From Candidatus Woesearchaeota archaeon (GTDB lineage Archaea > Nanobdellota > Nanobdellia > Woesearchaeales > UBA525): a stretch of 49,410 nt of DNA. Numbering within the stretch: the stretch's first letter is position 1; each line of letters begins with the position of its first letter. The notes beneath the pieces are model-generated. The model saw only the letters and a program-made list of their open reading frames with translations. It had not been told where the DNA came from and did no database searches. The position numbers and the translations under genes are program-made. Where the stretch lies: the NCBI GenBank assembly GCA_014874255.1, contig JACWAN010000015.1, positions 1 through 49,410 on the forward strand, written 5' to 3'. Positions 4,176-49,410 of the stretch are shown here, in pieces.

Positions 4176-4228
4176 CCCTTCCCTTCCCTCTCTCCTCTCT
4201 CTTTTCTCCCCCCTTCCCTTTCTCTCTC
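4176..4228 (+). terminator. 53-nt pure polypyrimidine tract 3' of leuS (candidate terminator)
   Basis: CCCTTCCCTTCCCTCTCTCCTCTCTCTTTTCTCCCCCCTTCCCTTTCTCTCTC begins 4 nt after the stop codon. Confidence 0.5.
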
Positions 4229-4245
4229 GACGCCTCTTCCACAAC

Positions 4246-4257
4246 CTTTTTAAAACA
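4246..4257 (+). promoter_or_regulatory. TATA-like box (leaderless gene 4278)
   Basis: CTTTTTAAAACA lies about 25 nt upstream of the ATG. Confidence 0.55.
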
Positions 4258-5696: not shown

Positions 5697-5783
5697 CCCC
5701 TTTCCCTTCCTTTTTTTTCTTCCTTTCTCTCTTCTTTTTCTCTCTTCCTTTTCTCTCTCCCCTCTTCACCCCTCCTCTTCCCC
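5697..5783 (+). terminator. 87-nt polypyrimidine tract (one purine) 3' of gene 4836..5690
   Basis: Pure C/T from 5697 to 5767 including T8 and T5 runs, a single A at 5768, then C/T to 5783. Confidence 0.5.
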
Positions 5784-5924
5784 GCGCCTGAAGGCGATAT
5801 CTGAGATTCAGAAAACTTAAAAATACAAAACAATCCTTATTATACAATAACGTATTAAAAATAAAAAACGACGTTCTTTTTCATGAATCCGGTTTGGACG
5901 GTTGAGCATCGGAAGCGTGGGCGC

Positions 5925-6566
5925 ATGGAGAACAAGCACATCATCGTCGCCGCCGTCGGCGGGGAGGAGGACGCGATCTTCCTCAGCATCAAGGAGTTCC
6001 ACGCCGAGCAGGTCATCCTCATCAGCGAGAAGGAATACGCCAAGGAGGCCGAGCGGATCAAGCGCGACCTCGAGCGCTTCAAGATCGCGTGCAGGATCGA
6101 GATGATGAAAGGCCCGGTCTGGGAGGAGATCTTCCGCATCATCCGCGCCACGGTCGAGCAGGCGCCGGAGCACAGCGAGGTGATCATCAACGTCGCCTCG
6201 GGACGCGGCCTGATGAACTGCGCCTCGACGAGCGCGGCCTTCGTCAACGGCCTCAAGGCGTTCGGCATCAACGACAAGGGCGAGGTGATGCTCCTCCCCG
6301 TGCTCAAGTTCAACTACTACACGCTGCTCAGCGACCGGAAGATGAAGCTCCTCAAGATCCTCGCGGACCGGGACTGCTGCTCCTCCCTGGAAGAGCTCGC
6401 CGACCGCGCGAAGATGAGCCTCTCCCTCGTCAGCTACCACATCAACGGCAACCTGAAGAGCGACGGCCTCCTCCAGCTCGGCCTCGTCGAGACGAAGGAG
6501 CAGAACAGGCGGGTGCACGTCGAGCTCACCACGATGGGCAAGCTCCTCCTCAAAGGCTACGTCTGA
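5925..6566 (+). CDS. Transcriptional regulator: Rossmann-like (Csa3/CARF-like?) N-domain plus C-terminal winged HTH
   Basis: MENKHIIVAAVGGEEDAI..VIINVASGRGLM N-domain. C-terminal LSDRKMKLLKILADRDCCSSLEELADRAKMSLSLVSYHINGNLKSDGLL resembles an ArsR-type wHTH. Alternative ATG at 5883. A very AT-rich promoter region lies at 5820-5880. Confidence 0.65.
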   Translation: MENKHIIVAAVGGEEDAIFLSIKEFHAEQVILISEKEYAKEAERIKRDLERFKIACRIEMMKGPVWEEIFRIIRATVEQAPEHSEVIINVASGRGLMNCASTSAAFVNGLKAFGINDKGEVMLLPVLKFNYYTLLSDRKMKLLKILADRDCCSSLEELADRAKMSLSLVSYHINGNLKSDGLLQLGLVETKEQNRRVHVELTTMGKLLLKGYV

Positions 6567-6580
6567 GACAATGCTTCAAG

Positions 6581-6792
6581 CATCATCGCCGCCGGCCAAA
6601 GGGCGAGCGTTGCGAAGAGGAGAGCGAAGGCCGACGTGGAGGTTGGTTCCGAGGCTCCGAGGAACCTGGGAACGGAGTGACCTTGCCCCGTACGGGGACG
6701 AGTCCCCTCGACGAGAACAGCGATACGCGAGCATGTCTGAGCCATACGAGGACGGGCAGGAGCGTCAGCGACTGCAGCCCGCGGCGATGATG
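6581..6792 (+). repeat. Hybrid A/B-type structured repeat
   Basis: Perfect 12-bp closing helix CATCATCGCCGC / GCGGCGATGATG. A-like CGGCCAAAGGGCGAGCG, B-like GGTTCC..GGAACC hairpin, central GACCTTGCCCCGTACGGGGACGAG, B-like GGGCAGGAGCGTCAGCGACTG. Confidence 0.75.
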
Positions 6793-6819
6793 CCGCCGCG
6801 CCGGAAAGCGCCGCAACCG

Positions 6820-8330: not shown

Positions 8331-8449
8331 ATCATGGCCGTCGCCTTGGAGCGAGACCCGGACGCGAGGATGGCCTGGAGGCCATGATCCTGAGCGCCCG
8401 ATAAAGTCTCGGACCGGAGGGAGAATAAGGTCTCCGCCGCGGCCATGAT
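8331..8449 (+). repeat. Family-B repeat, L module only
   Basis: Closing helix ATCATGGCCG / CGGCCATGAT. CCTTGGAGC..GAGCGCCCGATAAAGTCTCGGACCGGAGGGAG. Confidence 0.8.
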
Positions 8450-8488: not shown

Positions 8489-8653
8489 GGCTCTTAGGCA
8501 AATGGTGTGTCGCCGGCCAGAGGGCGAGGCATGAGGAGAACACAGCAGAAGAGGTCGGGGGGTCGCCCCATACGGGGGTGACCGGAACGGCGGGGAACGA
8601 AGCGGTTGCCGAGCAGCCGGCGACACCGTCGGAGGCGAATTTGCCTAAGAGCC
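8489..8653 (+). mobile_element. Family-A MITE (165 bp)
   Basis: TIR GGCTCTTAGGCAAAT (8489-8503) and its inverse ATTTGCCTAAGAGCC (8639-8653). 9-bp TSD TCTTCCTAG at 8480-8488 and 8654-8662. Confidence 0.88.
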
Positions 8654-8698
8654 TCTTCCTAGGCAAACTTTAAAAACCCTGGAGTGGTGAAGGGTTGC

Positions 8699-9403: not shown

Positions 9404-9542
9404 TCTCCGTCGCCGCCGCCACGGCCTAACAAATCTCCCTCCGGTCCGAGACTTTATCGGGCGCTCGGGATCATGGCCTCGCGAAAAACGCTCGTCCATC
9501 CTCGCGCCCGGGTCTTGTGCCAAGGTGGCTGCGGCGACGGAG
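9404..9542 (-). repeat. Family-B repeat, L module only
   Basis: Closing helix CTCCGTCGCCGC / GCGGCGACGGAG. The plus strand reads CTCCCTCCGGTCCGAGACTTTATCGGGCGCTC..GTGCCAAGG. Confidence 0.8.
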
Positions 9543-9592
9543 GGTTTGCCTTCGTCGGACGACCCTGCTGAGAAGCTCTCTCCGCAACCAGC

Positions 9593-9757
9593 GGCTCTTA
9601 GGCAAATGGAGTCGTCACCGGCCAGAGGGCGAGGCAAGCGAGGAAGGAGGGCAGAGCGCGACGGGGGGGCTGCCCCCTACGGGGAGGAGCGCTTTCGAGA
9701 GGAGAAGCGATTGCCGAGCAGCCGGTGACGACCACGAACGTGATTTGCCTAAGAGCC
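9593..9757 (+). mobile_element. Family-A MITE (165 bp)
   Basis: Same TIRs. 9-bp TSD GCAACCAGC at 9584-9592 and 9758-9766. Confidence 0.88.
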
Positions 9758-9771
9758 GCAACCAGCAGAAA

Positions 9772-15693: not shown

Positions 15694-15833
15694 GTCGTCA
15701 TCGCCGCCGACCGGTTCTCGGACCGGAGGGAGGTTCCGGCTCTGTAGCGGCGGAACCCAGGAACCATGAGTCATACGAGCGGGTCAGGAGCTCGGAGAGC
15801 GACTGAGAGCGATTTCGCCGCAGCGATGACGAC
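15694..15833 (+). repeat. Family-B repeat, truncated L plus one R module
   Basis: Closing helix GTCGTCATCGC / GCGATGACGAC. CTCGGACCGGAGGGAGGTTCCGGCTCTGTAGCGGCGGAACCCAGGAACC..CGAGCGGGTCAGGAGCTCGGAGAGCGACTGAG. Confidence 0.8.
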
Positions 15834-18801: not shown

Positions 18802-20334
18802 CTATCCCAGCCCTGGATAGGCGCGCTTGATCGGTTTCGCGTCTTTCTTCTCTTCCTTGACCAAATCCTCGAACAACGGCACCTTCACAGGGAGGGCGAA
18901 CGGGGCGAACGTGCTCGTCACGACGGCTTCGCCCTTGTCGAGGGAGGCGATGGCGCGGTCGTCCTGCGACAGGTCTTGCGCCGCGCTCTCGATGATGGCC
19001 TGCCGCTCCGGTTTCATCTCCAGCCCCAGGATGATCTTCGTGTTCATGTTCGCGAGCACTTGCCGCGGGATCAGCGACGGCAGCTGCGTGATGGCGATGA
19101 GGCCGACCTTGAACTTCCTCCCTTCACGGGCGATCGTGGAGAAGATGTTCCTCCCCGCTTCGAGGACCTCGTTCCCCAGCACCCTGGGCGCTTCCTCGAG
19201 GACGATGGACGCGACCGGCAACGATTTGAGCGTGTCGTCGAGCTTCGCCCGTTTGTACGTCCGGAACAGCTCCGTGGCGATCATGCTGCCGACGAGGATC
19301 TCTTCGCGGCCGTCGAAACCGGAGGTGTCGACGACGACGATCTTCCCCTTCGTGATGGCGTTGCAGATGTCCGTGATGGTGGTCGCGCCCGCGTTCAGCT
19401 TGAAGACGCCCTCGCAGCTGAGCCGTTCGCCGTCCCACGAAAGCGAGAGGAGGTCCATGACCCTGCGGCGGACGACGCCGAGCGTGCCTTCGTGGTACTT
19501 GTTCTCGAGCGGCTTCTCCAGCACGACCGCTTCCACCCACTCGTTCCCGTACTTCTTCCAGTACGCGTTGAGCGCCTCCTGCTGCGGCGGGCTCCACGCG
19601 ACCGCGCCGTCGAAGTGGCCGGGCCGGACGTCGTTGAGGCTGAACGCCAGGGTGTTGGTGCCGGGCAACGGCTCCGTGCTGTAGTAGAGGATCTTCTCCT
19701 TCGCCCGAGGGTGATCCTTCAGCCCGGGCTCCGCGTTGTAGTACTCGTCGTGCGGGTCCAGGACGAGCATGCCGGCGTACTCCTCGCTGGCGAGCTTCCA
19801 CAGCAGGCACTTGAGCAGGTTCGACTTGCCCCTTCCGGTGGTCGCGGGGATGAGGAGATGGTGGCTGAGCGCGTCCGCGCCGTCGAGGAACAACGGCACA
19901 GGGAGGACCTTCGAGCCGGAGCGGAGATTCCCCAAGAAGAGCGGGTTCTTCGGCTTCGTCAGGAAGGAGAGGTCGTCCGGCGTCACTTCGCGCAGCTCGC
20001 TGAAGAAGCCGGGCAACGTCTTGGATGATCTCGGTCTTTGTTTTGTACCGGGTAATGTGATGAGGCTCTGGAGTCTTGCTAAGGTATAATTCCTGAGCGC
20101 CGGATCCATGAACTCCAGGGAGGAGCCCTCTTCCAGCCGCATCCCGCTGACGAACTCGAGGTTCTGCTCGCTCACCTGGCTGCCGTAGAAGAGGTCGTAC
20201 ACCTGCATCAAGGTCTTCGATTCAGAAGATTCGGCGACGAGGAGCTCGCCGATCTCCAGCTCTTCGGTCGTCTTCTGCCGCGCGACGAGCTCGCCGAACC
20301 CGCCGCTGATGACCAGCCCCTTGACCCCCACCAT
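18802..20334 (-). CDS. herA: HerA-like (DUF87/FtsK-HerA superfamily) ATPase
   Basis: Walker [21 protein letters not shown], Walker [35 protein letters not shown]-like box at 20356-20366, about 27 nt upstream. Confidence 0.85.
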
Positions 20335-20384: not shown

Positions 20385-20550
20385 CCGACGCCGCCTTGGA
20401 ACGAGACCTGGGCGCGAGGATGGCGAACAGCAGCGAGCCATGATCCTGAGCGCCCGGCAAAGTCTCGGACCGGATGGGAGGCTCGGCTTCGAAGAAGCAG
20501 AGGATCAGAAGCTCGAAGAGCGACTGAGAACCGAATCTCCGCGGCGTCGG
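20385..20550 (+). repeat. Family-B repeat, L plus one diverged R module
   Basis: Closing helix CCGACGCCGC / GCGGCGTCGG. CCTTGGAAC..GAGCGCCCGGCAAAGTCTCGGACCGGATGGGAGG..GAGCGACTGAGAA. Confidence 0.8.
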
Positions 20551-21074: not shown

Positions 21075-21150
21075 CCTTTTTTTTCTAATCCTTTTCCCTC
21101 TTCTTCCTTCTCGTCCCTTCCTCCTTCTTCTCCCTTCCGTCTTTTCCTAT
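21075..21150 (+). terminator. Pyrimidine-rich tract 3' of the zinc-ribbon gene
   Basis: CCTTTTTTTTCTAATCCTTTTCCCTCTTCTTCCTTCTCGTCCCTTCCTCCTTCTTCTCCCTTCCGTCTTTTCCT. T8 run 10 nt after the stop codon. Confidence 0.5.
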
Positions 21151-21162
21151 CATCTAATCCTG

Positions 21163-21496
21163 AGGGAATGCCTCTTTGGAGCAGGACCAGAAATCGTGCC
21201 GATTCGCACGGAAGCAGAGCTTCCCCAGGAGCTTCGCTCCGGGAACCCGAACGCCTCGCGTTCTATAGGGTTCCGGCGTCCCGACGTTGCCGTCGTGGGC
21301 ATGCAGGCACGATTTCGCAATGTCCCGGATCGGAGGGAGGTTCCGGCTCTGTAGAGGCGGAACCCGGGAACCACGAGCCAGACGAGCGGGTCAGGAGTGC
21401 GAGCGACTGAACGAAGTGACTGAGACTCTGGTTCAAAGAACCGGAGGGTCAGGAGCTCAGAGAGTGACTGAGGGCGATTTCTCCGCGGCATTCCTC
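21163..21496 (+). repeat. Family-B repeat, long form (extended L plus two R modules)
   Basis: Closing helix GAGGGAATGCC / GGCATTCCTC. The extended L is shared with the copy at 49239. Two GGGTCAGGAG..GAGCGACTGA modules. Confidence 0.85.
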
Positions 21497-26040: not shown

Positions 26041-26152
26041 CGTCGCCACGGCCTAACTATCCTCCCATCCGGTCCGGGATTCTGTCGGGCGCTCAGGATT
26101 ATGCGGCCGCGGCCGCATCCTCGCACCCGTCAATCGTGCCAAGGTGGCGACG
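26041..26152 (-). repeat. Family-B repeat, L module only
   Basis: Closing helix CGTCGCCAC / GTGGCGACG. CCTCCCATCCGGTCCGGG..TCGGGCGCTCAGG..GTGCCAAGG. Confidence 0.8.
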
Positions 26153-26184
26153 TTTGTTCCTGTGCGTGAATGTCGGTCTTTCTT

Positions 26185-27426
26185 TCACTTCGTGTGGCCC
26201 AAATCCTCGACGAAGCCGCTCTTCACGTTGACGATGATGTTGTCGTTCTCCAATTCCTCGCAGCCGACGATCATGCCCTGCGTCTTGATCTGCCAGAGCC
26301 GCTTGCCGACGTGGTCGCCCGGCTCCTGGGTGAGGATATCCGTGTAATGGCCTGCCTGGTTCGCCACACCGGAAAGGCCGGGCATGTAGTCCAGGCTGTA
26401 CGCGCCCTCGCCGTCGAGGATGTAGAGGTTGTGGTCGAAGCTGCCGACGACGACCTCGAGCCGGCCATCCCCGTCGATGTCCGTGATGATCGGGCTGGAG
26501 ACGATCCAGAAGTCCGTCTCGTAGCTCCAGAGCTTCTCGCCGCGCGCGGAGAGGCAGTAGACCTTGTTGTCGCAGCTCCCCGCGACGACCTCGAGCTCGC
26601 GGTCGTCGTTCAGGTCCGCCAGGGTGGCGCGGCCGTAGATCGCGCCCTCGGTGACGAACCGCCACTCCTCGTTCCCCTCCAGGTCGAGGCAGTAGAGGAT
26701 GCCGGCGGTGTCGCCCACGACGAGGTTCTCCGCCGCCGTCAATTTGCCGAAGGCCGGCTTCGCTTTTATCGCGCCCTTCGCCTTGAAGACCCAGAGCCGC
26801 TTGCCGAGCGGGTCGTAGCTGTGCAACTCTCCGGCCTCGGTGCCGAAGATGACCTGCGTGATCCTGCCGTGATGGACCGCGGGCTCGCTCTCGATGCCGC
26901 CCTCGATCTCGAGGGAGGAACGTTCTTTCCCCTTGTGGTCGAGGATGACGAACCGGCCGGCGGTGGTGCCGAACAACACTTCCTTGCTGCCGTCGTTGTC
27001 CAGGTCGTCCACGATGATCCGTCCGCGGACCGCGCCCTTGGTCCGGTACTCCCAGAGGAGCTTCCCCCTGCCGTCGAGGCAGTAGACGATGCCGAGCTCG
27101 GTGCCGAAGACGATCTCCGGCTTCCCGTCGCCGTCCACATCCTGGATCGTGGGGGTGGCGTGCACGGACTCGATCCGGTCCGAGTCGTAGAAGTAGGACT
27201 CGACCTCGTCCACCTTCTCCTGGATGTCGTACTCCCACTTCTTCGCGGCGTGCTCGTCGATGCAGAAGACCCGTCCGTCTTTCGTGCCGAAGATGATCTC
27301 CTTCTTGCCGTCGCCGTCGATGTCCACCGCCGCGGCCGAGGAGAGGAGGGGGCTCCGCACGTCGAACGTCCACTTCTCGATGATGCGGCCGCCGTGGTTG
27401 TGCGTGGATTTGCTCAGCGAGAACAT
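26185..27426 (-). CDS. FG-GAP/PQQ-like beta-propeller repeat protein (no signal peptide seen)
   Basis: Repeated D[IVL]DGDGK.E[IV][IVL]FGT..G.[IV].C[IL]D units, at least 6 times. Confidence 0.75.
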   Translation of the reverse strand: MFSLSKSTHNHGGRIIEKWTFDVRSPLLSSAAAVDIDGDGKKEIIFGTKDGRVFCIDEHAAKKWEYDIQEKVDEVESYFYDSDRIESVHATPTIQDVDGDGKPEIVFGTELGIVYCLDGRGKLLWEYRTKGAVRGRIIVDDLDNDGSKEVLFGTTAGRFVILDHKGKERSSLEIEGGIESEPAVHHGRITQVIFGTEAGELHSYDPLGKRLWVFKAKGAIKAKPAFGKLTAAENLVVGDTAGILYCLDLEGNEEWRFVTEGAIYGRATLADLNDDRELEVVAGSCDNKVYCLSARGEKLWSYETDFWIVSSPIITDIDGDGRLEVVVGSFDHNLYILDGEGAYSLDYMPGLSGVANQAGHYTDILTQEPGDHVGKRLWQIKTQGMIVGCEELENDNIIVNVKSGFVEDLGHTK

Positions 27427-27486
27427 CAGCTTCCCTCTTCTTGCCCTGCCTTCGGCAACGCCCTATTTAAAGTTTATGACGGTTTG

Positions 27487-27653
27487 GGCTCTTAGGCAAA
27501 TGATGTGTTGCCGGCCAAAGGGCGACCCGTAGCAGAGAATGAAGCGAAGGAGGAGAGGGGGTTGCCCCCTACGGGGAGCTCCGCTGACGCGAAGAACGCA
27601 GCGACACGGGTCGCAGCCGGCAACACCGCCGAAGGCGAATTTGCCTAAGAGCC
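27487..27653 (+). mobile_element. Family-A MITE (167 bp), no TSD, abutting the AT-rich origin repeats
   Basis: TIRs are intact. The flanks GACGGTTTG and CTATAAATA do not match each other. Confidence 0.8.
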
Positions 27654-27722
27654 CTATAAATAATAAATAATATTACCTATAAATAATAAATAATATTACC
27701 TATATAGAAATATAATAATACA
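27654..27722. repeat. AT-rich 23-bp tandem repeat (CTATAAATAATAAATAATATTAC x2 plus a partial third); candidate DNA unwinding element
   Basis: Units at 27654-27676 and 27677-27699, then CTATATAGAAATATAATAATAC. This is the most AT-rich stretch of the window and lies about 185 nt upstream of the cdc6 start. Confidence 0.8.
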
Positions 27723-27906: not shown

Positions 27907-29112
27907 ATGGTGGAAAAGATCACCACATTCTTCCAGAACTTCCTCGACAAGGGGAGCCTCTTCGCGAACAAGAAGGTGCTCCAGAGCACCTACATCCCCG
28001 ACGAGATCCAGCACCGCGACCAGCAGATCGAAGCGGTGGCGAACATCCTCGCCCCCGCCCTCAGGTCCGAGCGGCCGAGCAACCTCTTCCTCTACGGGAA
28101 GACCGGCACCGGGAAGACGCTCACGACGAAGTACACCGCGGAGAAGATGATGGAGGTCGCCCAGGAAAGGAACATCCCCCTCCACATCTATTACGTGAAC
28201 TGCAAGCTGAAACGGATCGCGGACACGGAATACCGTCTGATAGCCGAGCTGGCACGCTACCTCGGCAAGGCCATCCCGCCGACCGGCTTGCCGACGGACG
28301 AGGTCTACAACATCTTCTTCCAGGCGCTCGATGCGAAGAAGCAGGTCGTCATCTTCATCCTCGACGAGATAGACCAGCTTGTCAAGCGCACGGGCGACGA
28401 GATCATCTACAACCTCACCAGGGTCAACGCGGAGCTGAAGAACGCGCAGGTCTCCCTCATCGGGATCAGCAACGACCTGACGTTCAGCAACAACCTCGAC
28501 CCGCGGGTGAAGAGCAGCCTCTCCGAGGAGGAATTGGTCTTTCCCCCGTACAACGCGCTCCAGATCCAATCCATCCTCAAGCGGAGGTGCGGCCTCGCCT
28601 TCAACGAAGGCGTGCTGGACGAGGGCGTCATCGCGAAATGCGCGGCCTTCGCCGCGCGCGAGCACGGCGACGCGCGGCGCGCGCTCGAGCTCATCCGGGT
28701 GGCGGGCGAGCTCGCCGAGCGCGACGGCGAAGAAAGGGTGCTGATTAAGCATATCGACGTCGCCGAGGAGAAGATCGAGCGCGACCGGTTCCTCGACGTG
28801 GTGCAGCACCAGCCGAAGCAGTTCCAGGCCACCCTGTACTCGGTGATCGCGGTGGACGACGCCTCGAAGGGCGCGTTCTTCACCGGCGAGATCTATGATT
28901 ACTACAAGGACCTCTGCGTCAAGGTGGGGCTGCGTCCGCTGACGCAGCGGCGCGTGAGTGATATCATCGCCGAGCTGGACATGCTCGGCCTCATCAACGC
29001 GAAGGTGATCAGCAAGGGGCGTTTCGGCCGGACGCGCGAGATCACCATCGGCCTGCCGAAGGCGCTGCTGCCGAAGGTGACCAGCATCCTTAAGGAGGAG
29101 ATGAGCCTGTGA
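27907..29112 (+). CDS. cdc6: Orc1/Cdc6 replication initiator
   Basis: LFLYGKTGTGKTLT (Walker A), VIFILDEID (Walker B), C-terminal winged helix. ATG 27907 lies about 27 nt from the TATA-like CTTTAAATAACC. Adjacent to an AT-rich repeat region. Confidence 0.93.
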   Translation: MVEKITTFFQNFLDKGSLFANKKVLQSTYIPDEIQHRDQQIEAVANILAPALRSERPSNLFLYGKTGTGKTLTTKYTAEKMMEVAQERNIPLHIYYVNCKLKRIADTEYRLIAELARYLGKAIPPTGLPTDEVYNIFFQALDAKKQVVIFILDEIDQLVKRTGDEIIYNLTRVNAELKNAQVSLIGISNDLTFSNNLDPRVKSSLSEEELVFPPYNALQIQSILKRRCGLAFNEGVLDEGVIAKCAAFAAREHGDARRALELIRVAGELAERDGEERVLIKHIDVAEEKIERDRFLDVVQHQPKQFQATLYSVIAVDDASKGAFFTGEIYDYYKDLCVKVGLRPLTQRRVSDIIAELDMLGLINAKVISKGRFGRTREITIGLPKALLPKVTSILKEEMSL

Positions 29113-29230: not shown

Positions 29231-29335
29231 GGTTGTGTCGCGGAGGTTTTGTCCTCCCTCCGGTCCGGGACGTTACGAAAAATGCCCTGCATGAATCGGG
29301 CATTTTTCTGGCATCGTTCCAAGGCGGCACAACCG
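29231..29335 (-). repeat. Family-B repeat, diverged L module
   Basis: CCTCCCTCCGGTCCGGGACG..hairpin ATGCCCTGCATGAATCGGGCAT..GTTCCAAGGCGGCACAACC. Imperfect closing helix. Confidence 0.65.
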
Positions 29336-36559: not shown

Positions 36560-36689
36560 CGACGCCATCGTCGCGGCGAACTCTTTCTCCCATCCGGTCC
36601 GAGAACAAGACTGCTGCTCACGATGATGGCCTCGCTGCCGCGCGGCCATGCTCGCCGCCGTCAATCGCGCCAAGGCGACGACGGCGTCG
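36560..36689 (-). repeat. Family-B repeat, L module only
   Basis: Closing helix CGACGCCATCGTCGC / GCGACGACGGCGTCG (one G-U-type mismatch). CTCCCATCCGGTCCGAG..GCGCCAAGG. Confidence 0.8.
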
Positions 36690-37594: not shown

Positions 37595-37832
37595 GCGTTG
37601 AAAGTGCACGTTGCCGCCCCCGGGCCGAACCGTTGCGAAGAAGGCGGTGAAGGCCGAGCAGGGGTCGGTTTCGAGTTATACGAGGAACCCGGGACCGCGA
37701 GCCAGACGCGCGGGTCAGGAGCGCGAGCGACCGAACGAAGGGACCTTGTCCCTTACGGGGACGAGGCCGTTCGAACAAAACAACGGCGCGGTTCGAAGGC
37801 GGCAACGCGAGCGAAAGCGAGGCTTTCAACGC
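37595..37832 (+). repeat. Hybrid A/B-type structured repeat
   Basis: Closing helices GCGTTGAAAG / CTTTCAACGC and CGTTGCCGCC / GGCGGCAACG. B-type R block CGCGGGTCAGGAGCGCGAGCGACCGAACGAAG followed by the central GGACCTTGTCCCTTACGGGGACGAGG. Confidence 0.75.
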
Positions 37833-38691: not shown

Positions 38692-38859
38692 GCGTCATCG
38701 TCGCGGCTTTGTTGTTCTCAGTCGCTCTCCGAGCTCCTGATCCTCTGGTTCTTCGAACCAGAGTCTCCCTCCGGTCCGAGAGATTGTCGGCGGCTCGCGA
38801 TGAGGGCCTCAAAAAGGCCATGCTCGCCGCCGTCAATCGTGCCAAGGCGACGATGACGC
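38692..38859 (-). repeat. Family-B repeat, one R plus L module
   Basis: Perfect 13-bp closing helix GCGTCATCGTCGC / GCGACGATGACGC. CTCAGTCGCTCTCCGAGCTCCTGATCC, then hairpin CTCTGGTTC-TTC-GAACCAGAG, then CTCCCTCCGGTCCGAG..GTGCCAAGG. Confidence 0.85.
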
Positions 38860-41516: not shown

Positions 41517-43646
41517 ATGCGTGGGCAGGCAGCGGCAGCGTTCTTCTTCATCCTTCTCCTCGCGCTACCGTTCGTGTCCGCGGCGGCGTGCACCGCCGCC
41601 GACACCCCGCTCGCCGACCTGAACCCCGCGGCCGCGCGCGTCGCTCTCGGCACGACGCTCGACGGCACGTTCACCGTCGGGAACAACGTCTCCGCGCAGC
41701 TCGGTTTCACCCCCCTGACGCCGGAACGGAACATCACCTTCGACGCGTCGTCGGGAGCGTTCTCCTTCACGCCCTCGGGCGCGGAGAACGCGACGCGCAT
41801 CCTCTTCTATGCGGTATCGCCGGACGGCTGCGTCGCGACGCGGCTCGCCACGTACGCGGTCCTCAAGCCTCCGGCCATCACGGCGACGCCGATTGGCACG
41901 CGGATCACCATCCCCGAAGCGCGCGCGACGCTCTTCTCCGCGACCGCTTCCGGCGCAGCATCGACGGAATGGCTGCTCGACGGCGCGCCCGTGAACGGCT
42001 CGAACGAGAGCTTCCTCTACGTGCCCGACTACAACGCGGCGGGCAGCCACAACGTCACGTTCGAGGCGACGAGCACGGACGGCATCACCGCGAGCGAGGC
42101 GTGGAACGTCACCGTGACGAACGTCAACCGGCCGCCCGTCCAGGTCGCGACGATCATGCCCGTGCTGCTGCCGGTCGGCGGCGACTACCTCCTCAACCTG
42201 AGCGCGTACTTCATGGACCCGGACAAGGGGCCGCTCGCCTTCACGGCCATGATCGACGAGCCGCCGGCGCAGTACGTCGCCCCGGCGAACGTCACGGTCA
42301 TCATCGACGGCAGCGATGCGGTCGTCACCGGCAACGCGCCCGGCAAGTCGTTCGTCCGTTTCGCCGCGACCGACAACGGCAACGCCTCGGTCGAGAGCCC
42401 GCCGGTCATGTACATCGTCTCCGACACGCGGGCAGGCATCCCCTCCGTGCCGTACTGCGGCGACAAGATGTGCCTCGCCCCCGAGAACTGCTCGACGTGC
42501 AGCAAGGACTGCGGCGGCTGCGAGGCCACGACGTGCACGCCGCAATGGAACTGCACGGACTGGGGCGACTGCCTTCCCGGCGGCTACCAGTACCGGAACT
42601 GCACGGTCGTCAACGGTTGCGAGAACGCGACCGTGAAGCCACCCATGGCGCAGACGTGCGACTACGCGCCGACCTGCTTCGACGGGATCAGGAACGGGAA
42701 CGAGTCCGGCGTCGATTGCGGCGGCCCGTGCGGCGCGTGCCCCTCCTGCTCTGATGCGGTGCGGAACCAGGGCGAGTCCGGTATTGATTGCGGCGGCCCG
42801 TGCGGCCCGTGCCCTTCCTGCTCCGACGGCATCAGGAACCAAGGGGAATCGGACGTCGATTGCGGCGGCCCGTGCGGCCCGTGCGCCGCCGGCGAGCGTT
42901 GCATGAAGCCGACGGACTGCGGTTCCTTGTCATGCGTCGACAGGGTCTGCGCGCAGCCGAACTGCTCCGATGGGGTGCGGAACCAGGGCGAGTCCGGTAT
43001 TGATTGCGGCGGTCCTTGTGCTGCGTGCCCGACGTGTTCCGATGGGGTGCGGAACCAGGGCGAGATCCTCCCGGACTGCGGAGGGCCGTGCCGCGCCTGC
43101 GCGCTGCACGACTACGCGCCCATCATCATCCGCTGGACCCTGCTCGCGGCGATGGCGCTCCTCCTCCTCGGCATCCTCTACTTCCTCCGCGCAATCCTCA
43201 CGTCGCGCCTCCTCTTCCTCCTCCAGAACCGGAAGACGATCCACTTCTTCTACGAGGACGCGCCCACGTACGCGCTCGTCCGCTCATGGAATTCGTTCGC
43301 GCGCCACTTCCGTTTCGACCGCCACAAGGCCTTCGGCTCGCTCGTCGACCAGACCTACAACGAGGTCGTCGGGCTCCGGCGGCTGCCCCCCGAAGCGCTC
43401 CGGCCGGCCTTGATTGGCCGGCTCCGCGGCCTCTACGCGGCGCTGCTCGACCTCTCGCCCGGCTTCGAGTACGACCTGCTCCTCTACTCCCTGAAGCGAG
43501 CGCGGCTGCCCTTCGCGGTGAAGGTCATCCTGCTCCGCAACACGAAGACGCTCTCCCTCATAGAATTGACGCAGCTCTACAGCGACCCTGGCTTCGCCCT
43601 CGAGGACGTGCTCCGCGGACTGGGCGAGCTGAAGAAGGCGTTCTGA
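41517..43646 (+). CDS. Large surface protein: signal peptide, Ig-like region, Cys-rich repeat array, TM, cytoplasmic tail
   Basis: Signal peptide AAFFFILLLALPFVSAAA. Many N-x-S/T sequons. Five 24-aa CS/FDG[IV]RNQGESG[IV]DCGGPCxxC repeats. TM (IIIRWTLLAAMALLLLGILYFL). About 190-aa tail. Confidence 0.8.
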   Translation: MRGQAAAAFFFILLLALPFVSAAACTAADTPLADLNPAAARVALGTTLDGTFTVGNNVSAQLGFTPLTPERNITFDASSGAFSFTPSGAENATRILFYAVSPDGCVATRLATYAVLKPPAITATPIGTRITIPEARATLFSATASGAASTEWLLDGAPVNGSNESFLYVPDYNAAGSHNVTFEATSTDGITASEAWNVTVTNVNRPPVQVATIMPVLLPVGGDYLLNLSAYFMDPDKGPLAFTAMIDEPPAQYVAPANVTVIIDGSDAVVTGNAPGKSFVRFAATDNGNASVESPPVMYIVSDTRAGIPSVPYCGDKMCLAPENCSTCSKDCGGCEATTCTPQWNCTDWGDCLPGGYQYRNCTVVNGCENATVKPPMAQTCDYAPTCFDGIRNGNESGVDCGGPCGACPSCSDAVRNQGESGIDCGGPCGPCPSCSDGIRNQGESDVDCGGPCGPCAAGERCMKPTDCGSLSCVDRVCAQPNCSDGVRNQGESGIDCGGPCAACPTCSDGVRNQGEILPDCGGPCRACALHDYAPIIIRWTLLAAMALLLLGILYFLRAILTSRLLFLLQNRKTIHFFYEDAPTYALVRSWNSFARHFRFDRHKAFGSLVDQTYNEVVGLRRLPPEALRPALIGRLRGLYAALLDLSPGFEYDLLLYSLKRARLPFAVKVILLRNTKTLSLIELTQLYSDPGFALEDVLRGLGELKKAF

Positions 43647-46603: not shown

Positions 46604-46855
46604 CGAGGGACGCCGCGGAGAGTCCCTTCTCAGTCGCTCTCTGAGCTCCTGATCCTCGCGTTCTCCGAACACGAGTCTCAGTCACTTCGTTCAGTCGCTC
46701 GCGCTCCTGACCCCCTCGTCTGGCTCGTGGTTCCTGGGTTCCGCCGCTACAGAGCCGGAACCTCCCTCCGGTCCGAGGCTTTGTCGGGCGCTCGCGATTA
46801 TGGCGCTGCGGCGCCATGTTCGCGCCCAGGTCCTGTGCCAAGGCGGCGCCCCTCG
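46604..46855 (-). repeat. Family-B repeat, two R plus L modules
   Basis: Closing helix CGAGGGACGCCGC / GCGGCGCCCCTCG. Over the shared blocks its reverse complement is nearly identical to 21330-21480. Confidence 0.85.
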
Positions 46856-48670: not shown

Positions 48671-49177
48671 ATGAAAGACGTGCTGATGGACATGTTCAAG
48701 CTGGGAGTGGGCGCCGCTGATTTGACCCGCGAGCAGGCGGAGGCGCTCGTCGCCAGGCTCCAGGAGCGGTACAAGGACGAGATCACGGACGGACGGGCGA
48801 TGGTGGACGACCTGCTCAAGCAGGCCGAAGAGAACTCGCAGAAGTTCCGCGCCCGCGTCAAGAGCGAGGTCGACAAGGCGATCCAGGAGCAGAAGCTCGT
48901 CGACGAGCAGGACCTGAAAGAGCTCGCGGCGAACGTCGAAGAGCTGGCGAGGACGACGCAGAAGGTCGCCGTCCAGGCGGCGAAGAACGCGGCGAAAGCG
49001 GCGAAACAGGCGGCCAAGGAAGCGATGAAGCAGGCGAAGGCCGCGGCGAAGAAGCCCGCGAAGCCGAAGAGAGCGAAGAAGCCCGCGAAGAAGGTCAAGA
49101 ACGCCGCGAAGAAAGCCGCCAAGAAGAAAGCGAAGAAGCCCGCGAAGAAGGCGGGGCGCGCGAAGAAACGGAGATAA
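48671..49177 (+). CDS. Phasin-like N-domain protein with Lys/Ala-rich histone H1-like tail
   Basis: The N-terminus MKDVLMDMFKLGVGAADLTREQAEALV.. resembles the phasin/COG3937 pattern. The C-terminus carries AAKKPAKPKRAKKPAKKVKNAAKKAAKKKAKKPAKK. AGGTGA lies 4 nt upstream of the ATG. Confidence 0.7.
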   Translation: MKDVLMDMFKLGVGAADLTREQAEALVARLQERYKDEITDGRAMVDDLLKQAEENSQKFRARVKSEVDKAIQEQKLVDEQDLKELAANVEELARTTQKVAVQAAKNAAKAAKQAAKEAMKQAKAAAKKPAKPKRAKKPAKKVKNAAKKAAKKKAKKPAKKAGRAKKRR

Positions 49178-49238: not shown

Positions 49239-49410
49239 GAGGAATGCCGCCTTGGAGTAAAACCAGAAAATGCACCGATTCGCACGGAAGCTACATGCTT
49301 CCGGCGCGCCGGTACCCTAGAACGCATCGCGTTCGGGTTCCCGGAGCGGAGCTCAAGGGTACTTCGTACCGTGCGCACGCAGGCGAATTTTCGCACTACG
49401 ATGCGAGGGG
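49239..49410 (+). repeat. Family-B repeat, long-L form (truncated by window end)
   Basis: GAGGAATGCCGCCTTGGAGTAAAACCAGAAAATGCACCGATTCGCACGGAAGC parallels 21163-21215. Confidence 0.75.

Follow-up and report, generated by a model that had tools for sequence, protein, structure and literature searches.

Modular bacterial repeats of the ERIC, BOX and Correia kinds are imperfect palindromes of 100-300 bp that lie in spacers in both orientations and carry compensating substitutions between their two halves. Their size classes arise from internal insertions or from the number of modules, their ends are conserved, and Correia elements are accompanied by TA duplications. REP and REPIN sequences are short, GC-rich, imperfect intergenic palindromes that are present in many copies without target duplication; the gene that mobilizes them, where there is one, lies elsewhere and is low in copy number, their shape is kept as the sequence drifts, and their families are lineage-specific and largely vertical (PMC3733652, PMC3116915, 10.1101/2021.07.10.451892). 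REP hairpins carry at their foot a conserved tetranucleotide, GTAG or CGTC, that stays unpaired, and the REP families surveyed are all from bacterial phyla (PMC3733652). Selfish hairpin repeats are also represented by the palindromes of Volvox mitochondria and plastids (PMC2670323). The present text concerns a family of intergenic palindromic repeats, referred to as family B, on a contig of 49,410 nt from a Candidatus Woesearchaeota archaeon (JACWAN010000015.1). The window analyzed is the entire contig, and both of its ends fall within family-B copies. Family B works most like REP and REPIN and resembles the modular ERIC and BOX elements, and it is a member of none of these families.

A sequence-only reading of the window, made without database searches, had listed 12 intergenic loci with common blocks in the same order, and both direct reading and self-BLAST find them at the positions it gave. 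Self-BLAST with the three longest copies retrieves all 12 loci together with a fragment missing from that list (37684-37744), which lies within another framed element at 37597-37830. The longest copy, treated here as the focal one, has BLAST relatives at 1-109, 15716-15824, 20478-20545, 37684-37744, 38717-38767, 46605-46783 and 49241-49354. The 14-nt core CGGACCGGAGGGAG, with at most one mismatch allowed, occurs seven times in the window versus 0.11 expected, a number reached in none of 100 shuffles, and the 26-nt R block occurs six times versus zero expected. The elements are non-coding and 57-335 nt long. The 12 copies in 49 kb take up 1954 of the 6245 intergenic bases of the window (31%) and are present in 12 of its 25 spacers of at least 40 nt. 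Every type of spacer is represented, and no copy overlaps an open reading frame (ORF) supported by third-position GC content. The orientation of the copies relative to the flanking genes is mixed, as had been noted. The statement that no described family matches the element likewise holds; Rfam, a plasmid collection and viral contigs are all without a match. The reported lack of a transposase agrees with a Pfam scan of 40 window ORFs, in which no transposase, integrase, HUH or TnpB was found.

A complete copy is most easily described in the orientation that begins with CCTTGG. The closing helix P1, variable in sequence and 7-18 bp long, terminates in GC (AC in three copies) and is followed on the 5' strand by a 3-nt CTT bulge. 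Next comes the short helix P1b (3-5 bp), in which GGNNN pairs with NNNCC immediately before the 3' arm of P1. This frame encloses inner hairpin modules, the first of which is either P2a, a GC-rich hairpin with a conserved GA...GA internal loop, or P2b, an AU-rich stem of 11 bp whose near-invariant loop reads GATTCATGCA in uninterrupted copies. After P2 stands either a hairpin whose sequence varies or a core that is conserved, C(C/T)CGGACCGGA(G/TG)GGAGG; in the window genome an optional GGTTCCGG hairpin and one or two R modules are additionally present. Larger copies hold one to several of these modules (P2a or P2b, the GGACCGGAGGGAG core, R modules) in the apical loop of the frame. The inner modules vary between copies, nest within each other's loops and swap between copies. 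A covariance model built from eight copies recovered all known copies, and the search with it gave the smallest complete one, a 57-nt bulged hairpin in the relative L034 (6030-6086) with the structure GGAGCTGGCACTGC-CTT-GGCGC-16 nt-GCGCC-GCAGTGCCAGCCTCC. A copy can therefore consist of nothing more than the bulged frame, whose apical loop is where the inner modules are accommodated. A further region of the same sequence that a hairpin search had flagged (L034 1425-1505) proved to be a chance match.

Several details of the blocks as first described need to be adjusted. The first block, given as CTTGG(C/A)AC, exists, and its correct form is CCTTGG(A/C)(A/G)C, in which CTT is the bulge and GGNNN pairs with the 3' NNNCC. 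The core block is present as well and occurs as two length variants, CGGACCGGAGGGAG and CGGACCGGATGGGAG. The order of the blocks is common to the loci; the copy at 15694 has neither the first hairpin nor the CCTTGG block on its 5' side. The length of the focal copy, delimited earlier as 21163-21496, had been attributed to its R modules; they account for it in part, and a nested module in the loop of the inner hairpin (21206-21300) adds to it too. The same nested insertion into the P2b loop is also present in the copy at 49239 and in the relative L028. The copy at 46604 has a frame of mixed origin, GGCAC-type on the 5' side and CTCC-type on the 3' side, and is in this sense chimeric.

These parts were also compared with known RNA motifs. 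An archaeal bulge-helix-bulge motif needs two 3-nt bulges on opposite strands with a 4-bp helix between them, whereas family B has no conserved second bulge: only the 5' CTT bulge is conserved, and the helix beyond it is 3-5 bp. One of the folds predicted for the minimal frame of L034 shows a second 3-nt bulge, which is absent from the other copies. A kink-turn was considered for P2a and is not claimed: its GA...GA loop departs from the canonical layout, since the non-bulged strand carries additional bases and the loop measures 1 nt or 6 nt instead of 3. With regard to a tRNA or tmRNA origin, ARAGORN finds neither in the window.

The sequence of the helices drifts while pairing, bulge and certain loops remain constant. 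Covariation, which had been suggested as a check, is strong in the alignments of both P2 types. In the P2b-type alignment (seven copies from five genomes), 92.5% of the cells are paired, versus 36-46% when the 3' partners are slid, and both sides have changed in 21 of the 32 pairs, a level reached in none of 500 shuffles. The P2a-type alignment (eight copies) has 89.6% of its cells paired, versus 25-54% after sliding, and both-sided change in 16 of 35 pairs. The P2b stem is 98.7% paired, with both sides changed in nine of its 11 pairs, and P1b covaries across copies as GGAG/CUCC, GGCG/CGCC, GGCGC/GCGCC and GUAG/CUAC. Compensatory changes in the R hairpin, also noted earlier, are confirmed at 45-65, 20482-20502, 38743-38763 and 21426-21446; the last of these had been placed about 10 nt too high, at ~21436-21456. 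Folded as single-stranded DNA, the focal copy reaches -78.6 kcal/mol (z = -4.7).

The closing helices of the window copies are complementary within each copy, as had been stated, over 9-18 bp with 97-99% pairing. They are not, however, strictly copy-specific. Helix GAGGAATGCC opens the copies at 21163 and 49239, whose flanks differ, and a compensated variant of it, GAGGAGCGCC/GGCGCTCCTC, is found in L019, so that GAGGA(A/G)(T/C)GCC is common to all three. Helix GGGGTGTTGC occurs in two copies of L029 with different interiors and again in L031. Helix GCGTCATCG(T/C)CGC is present in the copy at 38692 and in L029, where GCGTCATCGTCGC of the window copy is replaced by the compensated pair GCGTCATCGCCGC / GCGGCGATGACGC (L029 1195-1315). 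Every difference between recurring versions of a closing helix is matched on the opposite arm. In spacers across ~230 kb of related sequence, a search for empty GC-rich palindromes (9 bp or more, short loop) gave none, and the sole short hairpin to emerge there is the complete minimal frame of L034, with its own CTT bulge and GGCGC/GCGCC helix. Because the closing helices recur at unrelated loci and in other species, because empty palindromes are absent from the ~230 kb and because element-free spacers in relatives are as short as 16-95 nt, these helices belong to the repeated unit and not to the target DNA.

The sequence read from the clade amounts to ~270 kb in total. Family B was found only in a clade of Woesearchaeota, by scans of public collections and by look-ups around orthologous genes. 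The pattern of the genome-collection scan was specific to the GGATGGGAG variant, and its two true matches, both in Woesearchaeota and accompanied by nine chance matches, are therefore an undercount. The metagenome scan returned 12 loci, one of them true (L019), while a scan of viral contigs and a plasmid BLAST gave no family-B match. Sequences of UBA153 (L003, L029 and L036) contain seven copies in ~44 kb, and L019 contains three or four in 8.8 kb. One copy each is present in L028, L031 and L039, one with intact motifs in L008, and L034 has the lone minimal frame in 21 kb. No copy was found in L014 (21 kb), L035 or L037, nor in L042, an additional UBA153 sequence that holds the Hef gene and its flanks. 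Among relatives whose Cdc6 proteins are 78-84% identical, some sequences have no copy, and in others the density reaches about one per 4 kb. The GC content of related Woesearchaeota varies strongly as well, from 63% in the window to 48% in L014, whose Cdc6 is 84% identical, and 39% in the L008 genome.

Gain and loss can be followed at individual spacers. Among the relatives found, none exceeds 90% identity for HerA or Hef, and a single orthologous pair of close relatives, the window and L012, is therefore comparable. The spacer between cdc6 and polD measures 16-123 nt in five copy-free relatives versus 229-387 nt in the three genomes with a copy there, namely the window, L012 (flanking genes with 92% nucleotide identity) and L029. 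The L012 copy is decayed: its 5' arm is alignable, P2a stands where the window has P2b, and the 3' half and closing helix are lost. In the divergent SpoIIM/CCG spacer, four species each carry a different element, placed between the two TATA boxes. These are the minimal frame in L034, a family-B copy in L029, a copy of another framed family (family C, described below) in L013, and in L014 an unrelated transposable element of the miniature inverted-repeat kind (MITE) with 16-nt direct repeats. This pattern fits repeated insertion into a permissive site. The MITE-like element of L014 (~5770-5960) has the terminal inverted repeat GTAGAACATTC and is flanked by the 16-nt direct repeat ACAGACCTTGCAGAAC. 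In the flanks of 24 family-B copies, neither target duplications nor conserved flanking sequence was found. Pfam searches of the window and L019 gave no autonomous element with the same ends, and a search for frame-flanked genes within 6 kb gave only chance pairs or pairs of neighboring copies. Contig breaks also fall inside copies, at both ends of the window and at the end of L030.

Compared with the described systems, family B shares with REP and REPIN the traits named at the outset and its basic unit, a short imperfect palindromic hairpin, here the 57-nt minimal frame, whose bulged stem is kept in every larger copy. Unlike them, it has no GTAG or CGTC tag and no conserved bases flanking the helix, and its host is an archaeon. 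It also forms a single bulged frame with nested modules instead of two inverted REPs, and no RAYT (Y1/HUH) gene is present in the ~270 kb of sequence read. With ERIC, BOX and Correia elements it has in common the palindromes in spacers, the module-based size classes, the occurrence in both orientations and the compensated halves. It differs from them in lacking sequence similarity (no match in the plasmid collection or Rfam), in a terminal helix that varies far more than the interior and, from Correia elements, in the absence of TA duplications. Family B resembles classical MITEs, which are non-autonomous derivatives of DDE transposons and include archaeal ones, in being small, non-coding, multicopy and intergenic with inverted ends, and it co-occurs with a MITE-like family that has GGCTCTTAGGCAAAT ends. 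In contrast to classical MITEs, its outer 7-18 bp differ between most copies, and what these have in common is limited to the inner GC and to CTTGGNNC / NNNCCGC in subterminal position; direct target duplications are absent from the flanks of the 24 copies, and no parent insertion sequence was found. MITEs derived from IS200/IS605 (PATE-like) have subterminal hairpins of their own at the left and right ends and insert 3' of a fixed target of 4-5 nt; they differ from family B, whose ends pair with each other without separate end hairpins and whose 5' flanks have no shared motif. Integron attC sites, which have R''/R' core sites (GTTRRRY) and lie in cassette arrays beside an integrase gene, differ as well: the genes flanking family B are housekeeping genes on both strands (LeuRS, PolD, Cdc6, Hef), no integrase was found among the window ORFs scanned, and reading shows no GTTRRRY at the ends. 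Palindromes of organelles, including the GC clusters of fungal mitochondria and double-hairpin elements, inflate spacers and conserve structure over sequence, as family B does, and to our knowledge they have no dedicated enzyme. They occur in other hosts with other sequences, and their hairpins are simpler, having neither a bulged frame that is conserved nor inner modules that can be interchanged.

Family B is best explained, with a probability of roughly 0.55, as a structure-defined palindromic mobile or selfish DNA element of the REP/REPIN/ERIC/MITE kind, which multiplied in the spacers of one Woesearchaeota clade and is copied via its folded shape. Among the options named in the sequence-only reading, a hairpin-recognized, REP/REPIN-like mobile element fits best: the family is multicopy, lineage-specific and of variable density, occurs in both orientations, includes truncated, chimeric and decayed copies, and lacks target duplications. 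The repeated unit, closing helix included, is present at unrelated loci and in several species, and its pairing is equally good on both strands. From this it can be inferred that the copying agent reads the folded shape, that is, the bulged stem and the conserved loops, and not the end sequence. The substrate of copying would most plausibly be single-stranded DNA or an extruded cruciform. Complementarity of the arms could be maintained by either of two routes: only lineages with paired arms may go on multiplying, or mismatches between the arms may be repaired in the folded intermediate. Symmetric counts of G·T and A·C mismatches, such as those given below, are a prediction of either route. After insertion, copies would decay, and the copying enzyme would be one that the window does not encode. 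Folded shape is likewise what RAYT is believed to act on in REP and REPIN, and TnpA in the ends of IS200/IS605.

An alternative, which appears unlikely, is that family B is a structured non-coding RNA family or a set of cis-acting RNA elements in untranslated regions, with the frame serving as a terminal or processing stem and the loops of the inner hairpins contacting protein or RNA. In its favor are the covariation of several helices together with conserved loops and a conserved bulge, the helical expansions, which sit at loops as they do in large RNAs, and the conserved GA...GA internal loop of P2a; a copy with intact motifs also persists in the AT-rich L008. However, covariation alone cannot decide between RNA and DNA, because DNA palindromes yield the same signal. 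Functional RNAs tolerate G·U pairs and not A·C pairs, whereas the helices of family B are ~96% Watson-Crick and their mismatches are symmetric, with seven of G·T type versus six of A·C type in ~435 pairs. In 18 of 23 copies it is the forward strand that gives the more stable fold (Wilcoxon p = 0.002), but this advantage is mostly due to base composition: the forward strand is G-rich (G > C), shuffled forward sequences fold better too, the composition-corrected z-scores are only marginally apart, and both strands are about equal when folded as single-stranded DNA. A tally of flanking-gene strands shows that, between genes of the same direction, seven copies are sense and four antisense, and the 5' flanks have no shared promoter-like sequence. 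Rfam gives no match at gathering score over the whole window and, at E up to 10 in three sub-regions around five copies, only chance-level matches. Truncated, chimeric and decayed copies also argue against an RNA family, as does the copy number, since close relatives differ between having none and having hundreds per Mb. Of the structured-RNA option raised in the sequence-only reading, the covariation is real, while other observations count against it, and the three tests of mismatch symmetry, strand folding and gene orientation lean towards DNA.

It is also conceivable, albeit quite improbable, that the copies are domesticated DNA sites, where a host protein involved in chromosome organization or in replication or transcription boundaries would bind both the conserved blocks and the bulged hairpin or cruciform, the sites having spread as repeats and being now retained. 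Pairing symmetry at the DNA level is compatible with this, and so are the occupation of some spacers in several species and the conservation of non-palindromic blocks (the GGACCGGAGGGAG core, the GATTCATGCA loop) across species of very different GC content. Family-B copies are nevertheless missing or almost missing in the close relatives L014, L034, L035 and L037; copies decay, the interior is highly variable, and different repeat families occupy the same spacer. The earlier suggestion that each copy was inserted into the loop of a pre-existing palindrome, so that the closing helix is flanking DNA, is highly implausible. Helices do differ between many copies, and nested insertion into the P2b loop does occur (21163, 49239, L028), but the same helix recurs in other species and at unrelated loci flanked by unrelated sequence, the ~230 kb hold no empty palindrome of that kind, the short hairpin of L034 already has the family CTT bulge and GGCGC/GCGCC, and relatives have element-free spacers down to 16-95 nt. 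A more far-reaching and doubtful proposal is that DPANN archaea have an undescribed structure-specific system for which the conserved frame, taken here as a helix of any sequence followed by a CTT bulge and a GG.../...CC helix of 3-5 bp, serves as the handle. The system would be either an analogue of REPIN-RAYT or an RNA-processing cassette. In the former, a single-copy, vertically inherited enzyme would copy bulged hairpins of single-stranded DNA with arbitrary hairpin cargo in the loop. In the latter, the frame may be subject to a relaxed bulge-helix-loop recognition, by which the splicing endonuclease would excise the interior from whatever transcript contains it and so yield a stable or circular RNA.

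Several observations weigh against the interpretation of family B as mobile DNA copied by shape. The copies within the window are just 75-91% identical to each other (BLAST), which gives no hint of very recent activity. Polymorphism between strains, by insertion or by excision, was not seen, the only near-identical contigs, those with identical Cdc6, being 100% identical to the window, and the ~270 kb contain no mobilizing enzyme or autonomous copy. After correction for composition a slight advantage of the forward strand remains (z = -4.9 versus -4.3, p = 0.05). The conserved unpaired loops, the bulge and the copy kept in the 39% GC L008 would also suit a functional RNA or a binding site for a host protein. 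Moreover, the same spacer is occupied in the same orientation in more than one species at cdc6/polD, at beta-propeller/KaiC and on the 3' side of the HAD gene, which could reflect old, retained, useful copies rather than repeated insertion; it is mainly because of this recurrence that the functional readings are kept alive. Such sharing can also be coincidence, with a quarter to half of the spacers occupied and long spacers more permissive.

Table 1. Coordinates of family-B copies, of the parts of the focal copy and of related repeats (window positions unless a relative is named).
Feature	Position	Strand	Description
Focal copy, longest	21162-21496	+	Frame, P2b with nested module, core, GGTTCCGG hairpin, two R modules
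Focal P1 5' arm GAGGGAATGCC	21162-21172	+	Pairs with GGCATTCCTC at 21487-21496, one bulged G
Focal bulge and P1b 5' strand	21173-21182	+	TCTTT here (CTT elsewhere), then GGAGC; pairs with CTCC at 21481-21484
Focal P2b hairpin GAAATCGTGCC / GGCACGATTTC	21190-21316	+	Conserved loop GATTC...ATGCA split by nested module 21206-21300 (~95 nt)
Focal conserved core CGGATCGGAGGGAG	21326-21339	+	Family consensus CGGACCGGA(G/TG)GGAG
Focal R region	21339-21480	+	Hairpin, R1, R hairpin, R2, tail
Focal hairpin GGTTCCGG..CGGAACC	21339-21364	+	
Focal R1 unit	21388-21412	+	
Focal R hairpin CTCTGGTTC-AAA-GAACCGGAG	21426-21446	+	
Focal R2 unit	21447-21472	+	Followed by tail
Partial copy at contig end	1-116	+	R modules kept; 3' arm GCAGCACACCGAG at 104-116
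Copy without R modules	8331-8449	+	Frame, P2a, core; P1 ATCATGGCCGTCGC / GCCGCGGCCATGAT; 110 bits (covariance model)
Copy without R modules	9405-9542	-	P1 18 bp, CTCCGTCGCCGCAGCCAC / GTGGCGGCGGCGACGGAG; 112 bits (covariance model)
Copy without CCTTGG and P2	15694-15833	+	Core, GGTTCCGG hairpin, one R module; P1 GTCGTCATCGC / GCGATGACGAC; weak, 17.9 bits
L part and one R module	20385-20550	+	P1 CCGACGCCGC / GCGGCGTCGG
Copy without R modules	26041-26152	-	P1 CGTCGCCAC / GTGGCGACG; 98 bits (covariance model)
P2b-type copy between cdc6 and PolD small-subunit gene	29231-29334	-	P1 GGTTGTGCCGC / GCGACACAACC
Copy without R modules	36560-36689	-	P1 15 bp, CGACGCCGTCGTCGC / GCGACGATGGCGTCG; 109 bits (covariance model)
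L part and one R module	38692-38859	-	P1 GCGTCATCGTCGC / GCGACGATGACGC
L part, GGTTCCGG hairpin and two R modules	46604-46855	-	P1 CGAGGGGCGCCGC / GCGGCGTCCCTCG
Partial copy at contig end	49239-49410	+	Subtype of 21162-21496, P1 arm GAGGAATGCC in common
R1-type module	37684-37744	+	88-90% identical to 21360-21420; within 37597-37830 (GTTGAAAG / CTTTCAAC)
Family A copies, window	9591-9759, 27473-27667; remnant 8640-8667		
Family A copies, relatives	L029 ~19250-19400; L042 3619-3797, 7912-8124		
Family C copies	6580-6793, 37597-37830; L013 1075-1245		No CTTGG block

Two other repeat families accompany family B. Family A, about 170-195 nt long with a conserved terminal inverted repeat of 15-17 nt, GGCTCTTAGGCAAAT, is common to the window and UBA153 and looks like an ordinary MITE; the Logan contig L040 begins within the family-A copy at 27473-27667. 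Family C is a third framed family, with closing helices GCATCATCGCCGCCGGC / GCCCGCGGCGATGATGC and GTTGAAAG / CTTTCAAC. Because it has R-like and GGTTCCG-hairpin modules in common with family B, modules are exchanged between families. Long CT-rich polypyrimidine tracts are also found in spacers, at 4186-4250, 5706-5781 and 21087-21158, one of them immediately upstream of the focal copy.

The window, with a GC content of ~63%, encodes among other proteins PolD DP2, Cdc6/Orc1, Hef, HerA and a MoxR/VWA cluster, and for Cdc6, HerA and Hef the best homologues belong to Candidatus Woesearchaeota. Two AT-rich direct repeats TAAATAATAAATAATATTACCTATA at 27655-27720, which lie ~190 nt upstream of cdc6 (27907-29112), are probably the replication origin; an AT-rich repeat block is also present upstream of cdc6 in the relative L012. 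For the ~1.7 kb upstream of cdc6 in the window (26041-27667), which comprise a beta-propeller gene (26185-27462) and one copy each of families A and B, BLAST finds no counterpart in L012 (2970-3252), and the gene upstream of cdc6 differs, being KaiC-like in the window and TrmB-like in L012. The L014 orthologues of MCM and PolD DP2 contain inteins, and the DP2 of the window is without one. Within coding sequence, at least five tandem repeats of 24 codons (72 nt) occur at 42645-43135 in an ORF of 709 amino acids (41517-43646) that has no Pfam match. A Lys/Ala-rich repeat with a period of 12 nt, GCGAAGAAG..., at 48982-49151 lies at the 3' end of the ORF 48671-49177.

DPANN archaea have small, compact genomes, and literature searches gave no description of such repeats in them. 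One lineage has given about a third of its spacer DNA to structured repeats, while relatives with ~80% identical Cdc6 have none or almost none. Family B is a clear case of a repeat that is defined by its shape, a bulged stem together with conserved loops, instead of by the sequence of its ends, and whose interior is modular and nestable. In practical terms, these elements break assemblies of the metagenome-assembled genomes concerned. Covariation-based screens could, in addition, mistake them for RNA genes, because DNA palindromes give the same covariation signal. If an enzyme partner is found, structure-recognized mobilization of the REPIN kind would extend to archaea. Family B looks like a new archaeal counterpart of bacterial selfish palindromic DNA of the REP/REPIN/ERIC type rather than an RNA gene family.

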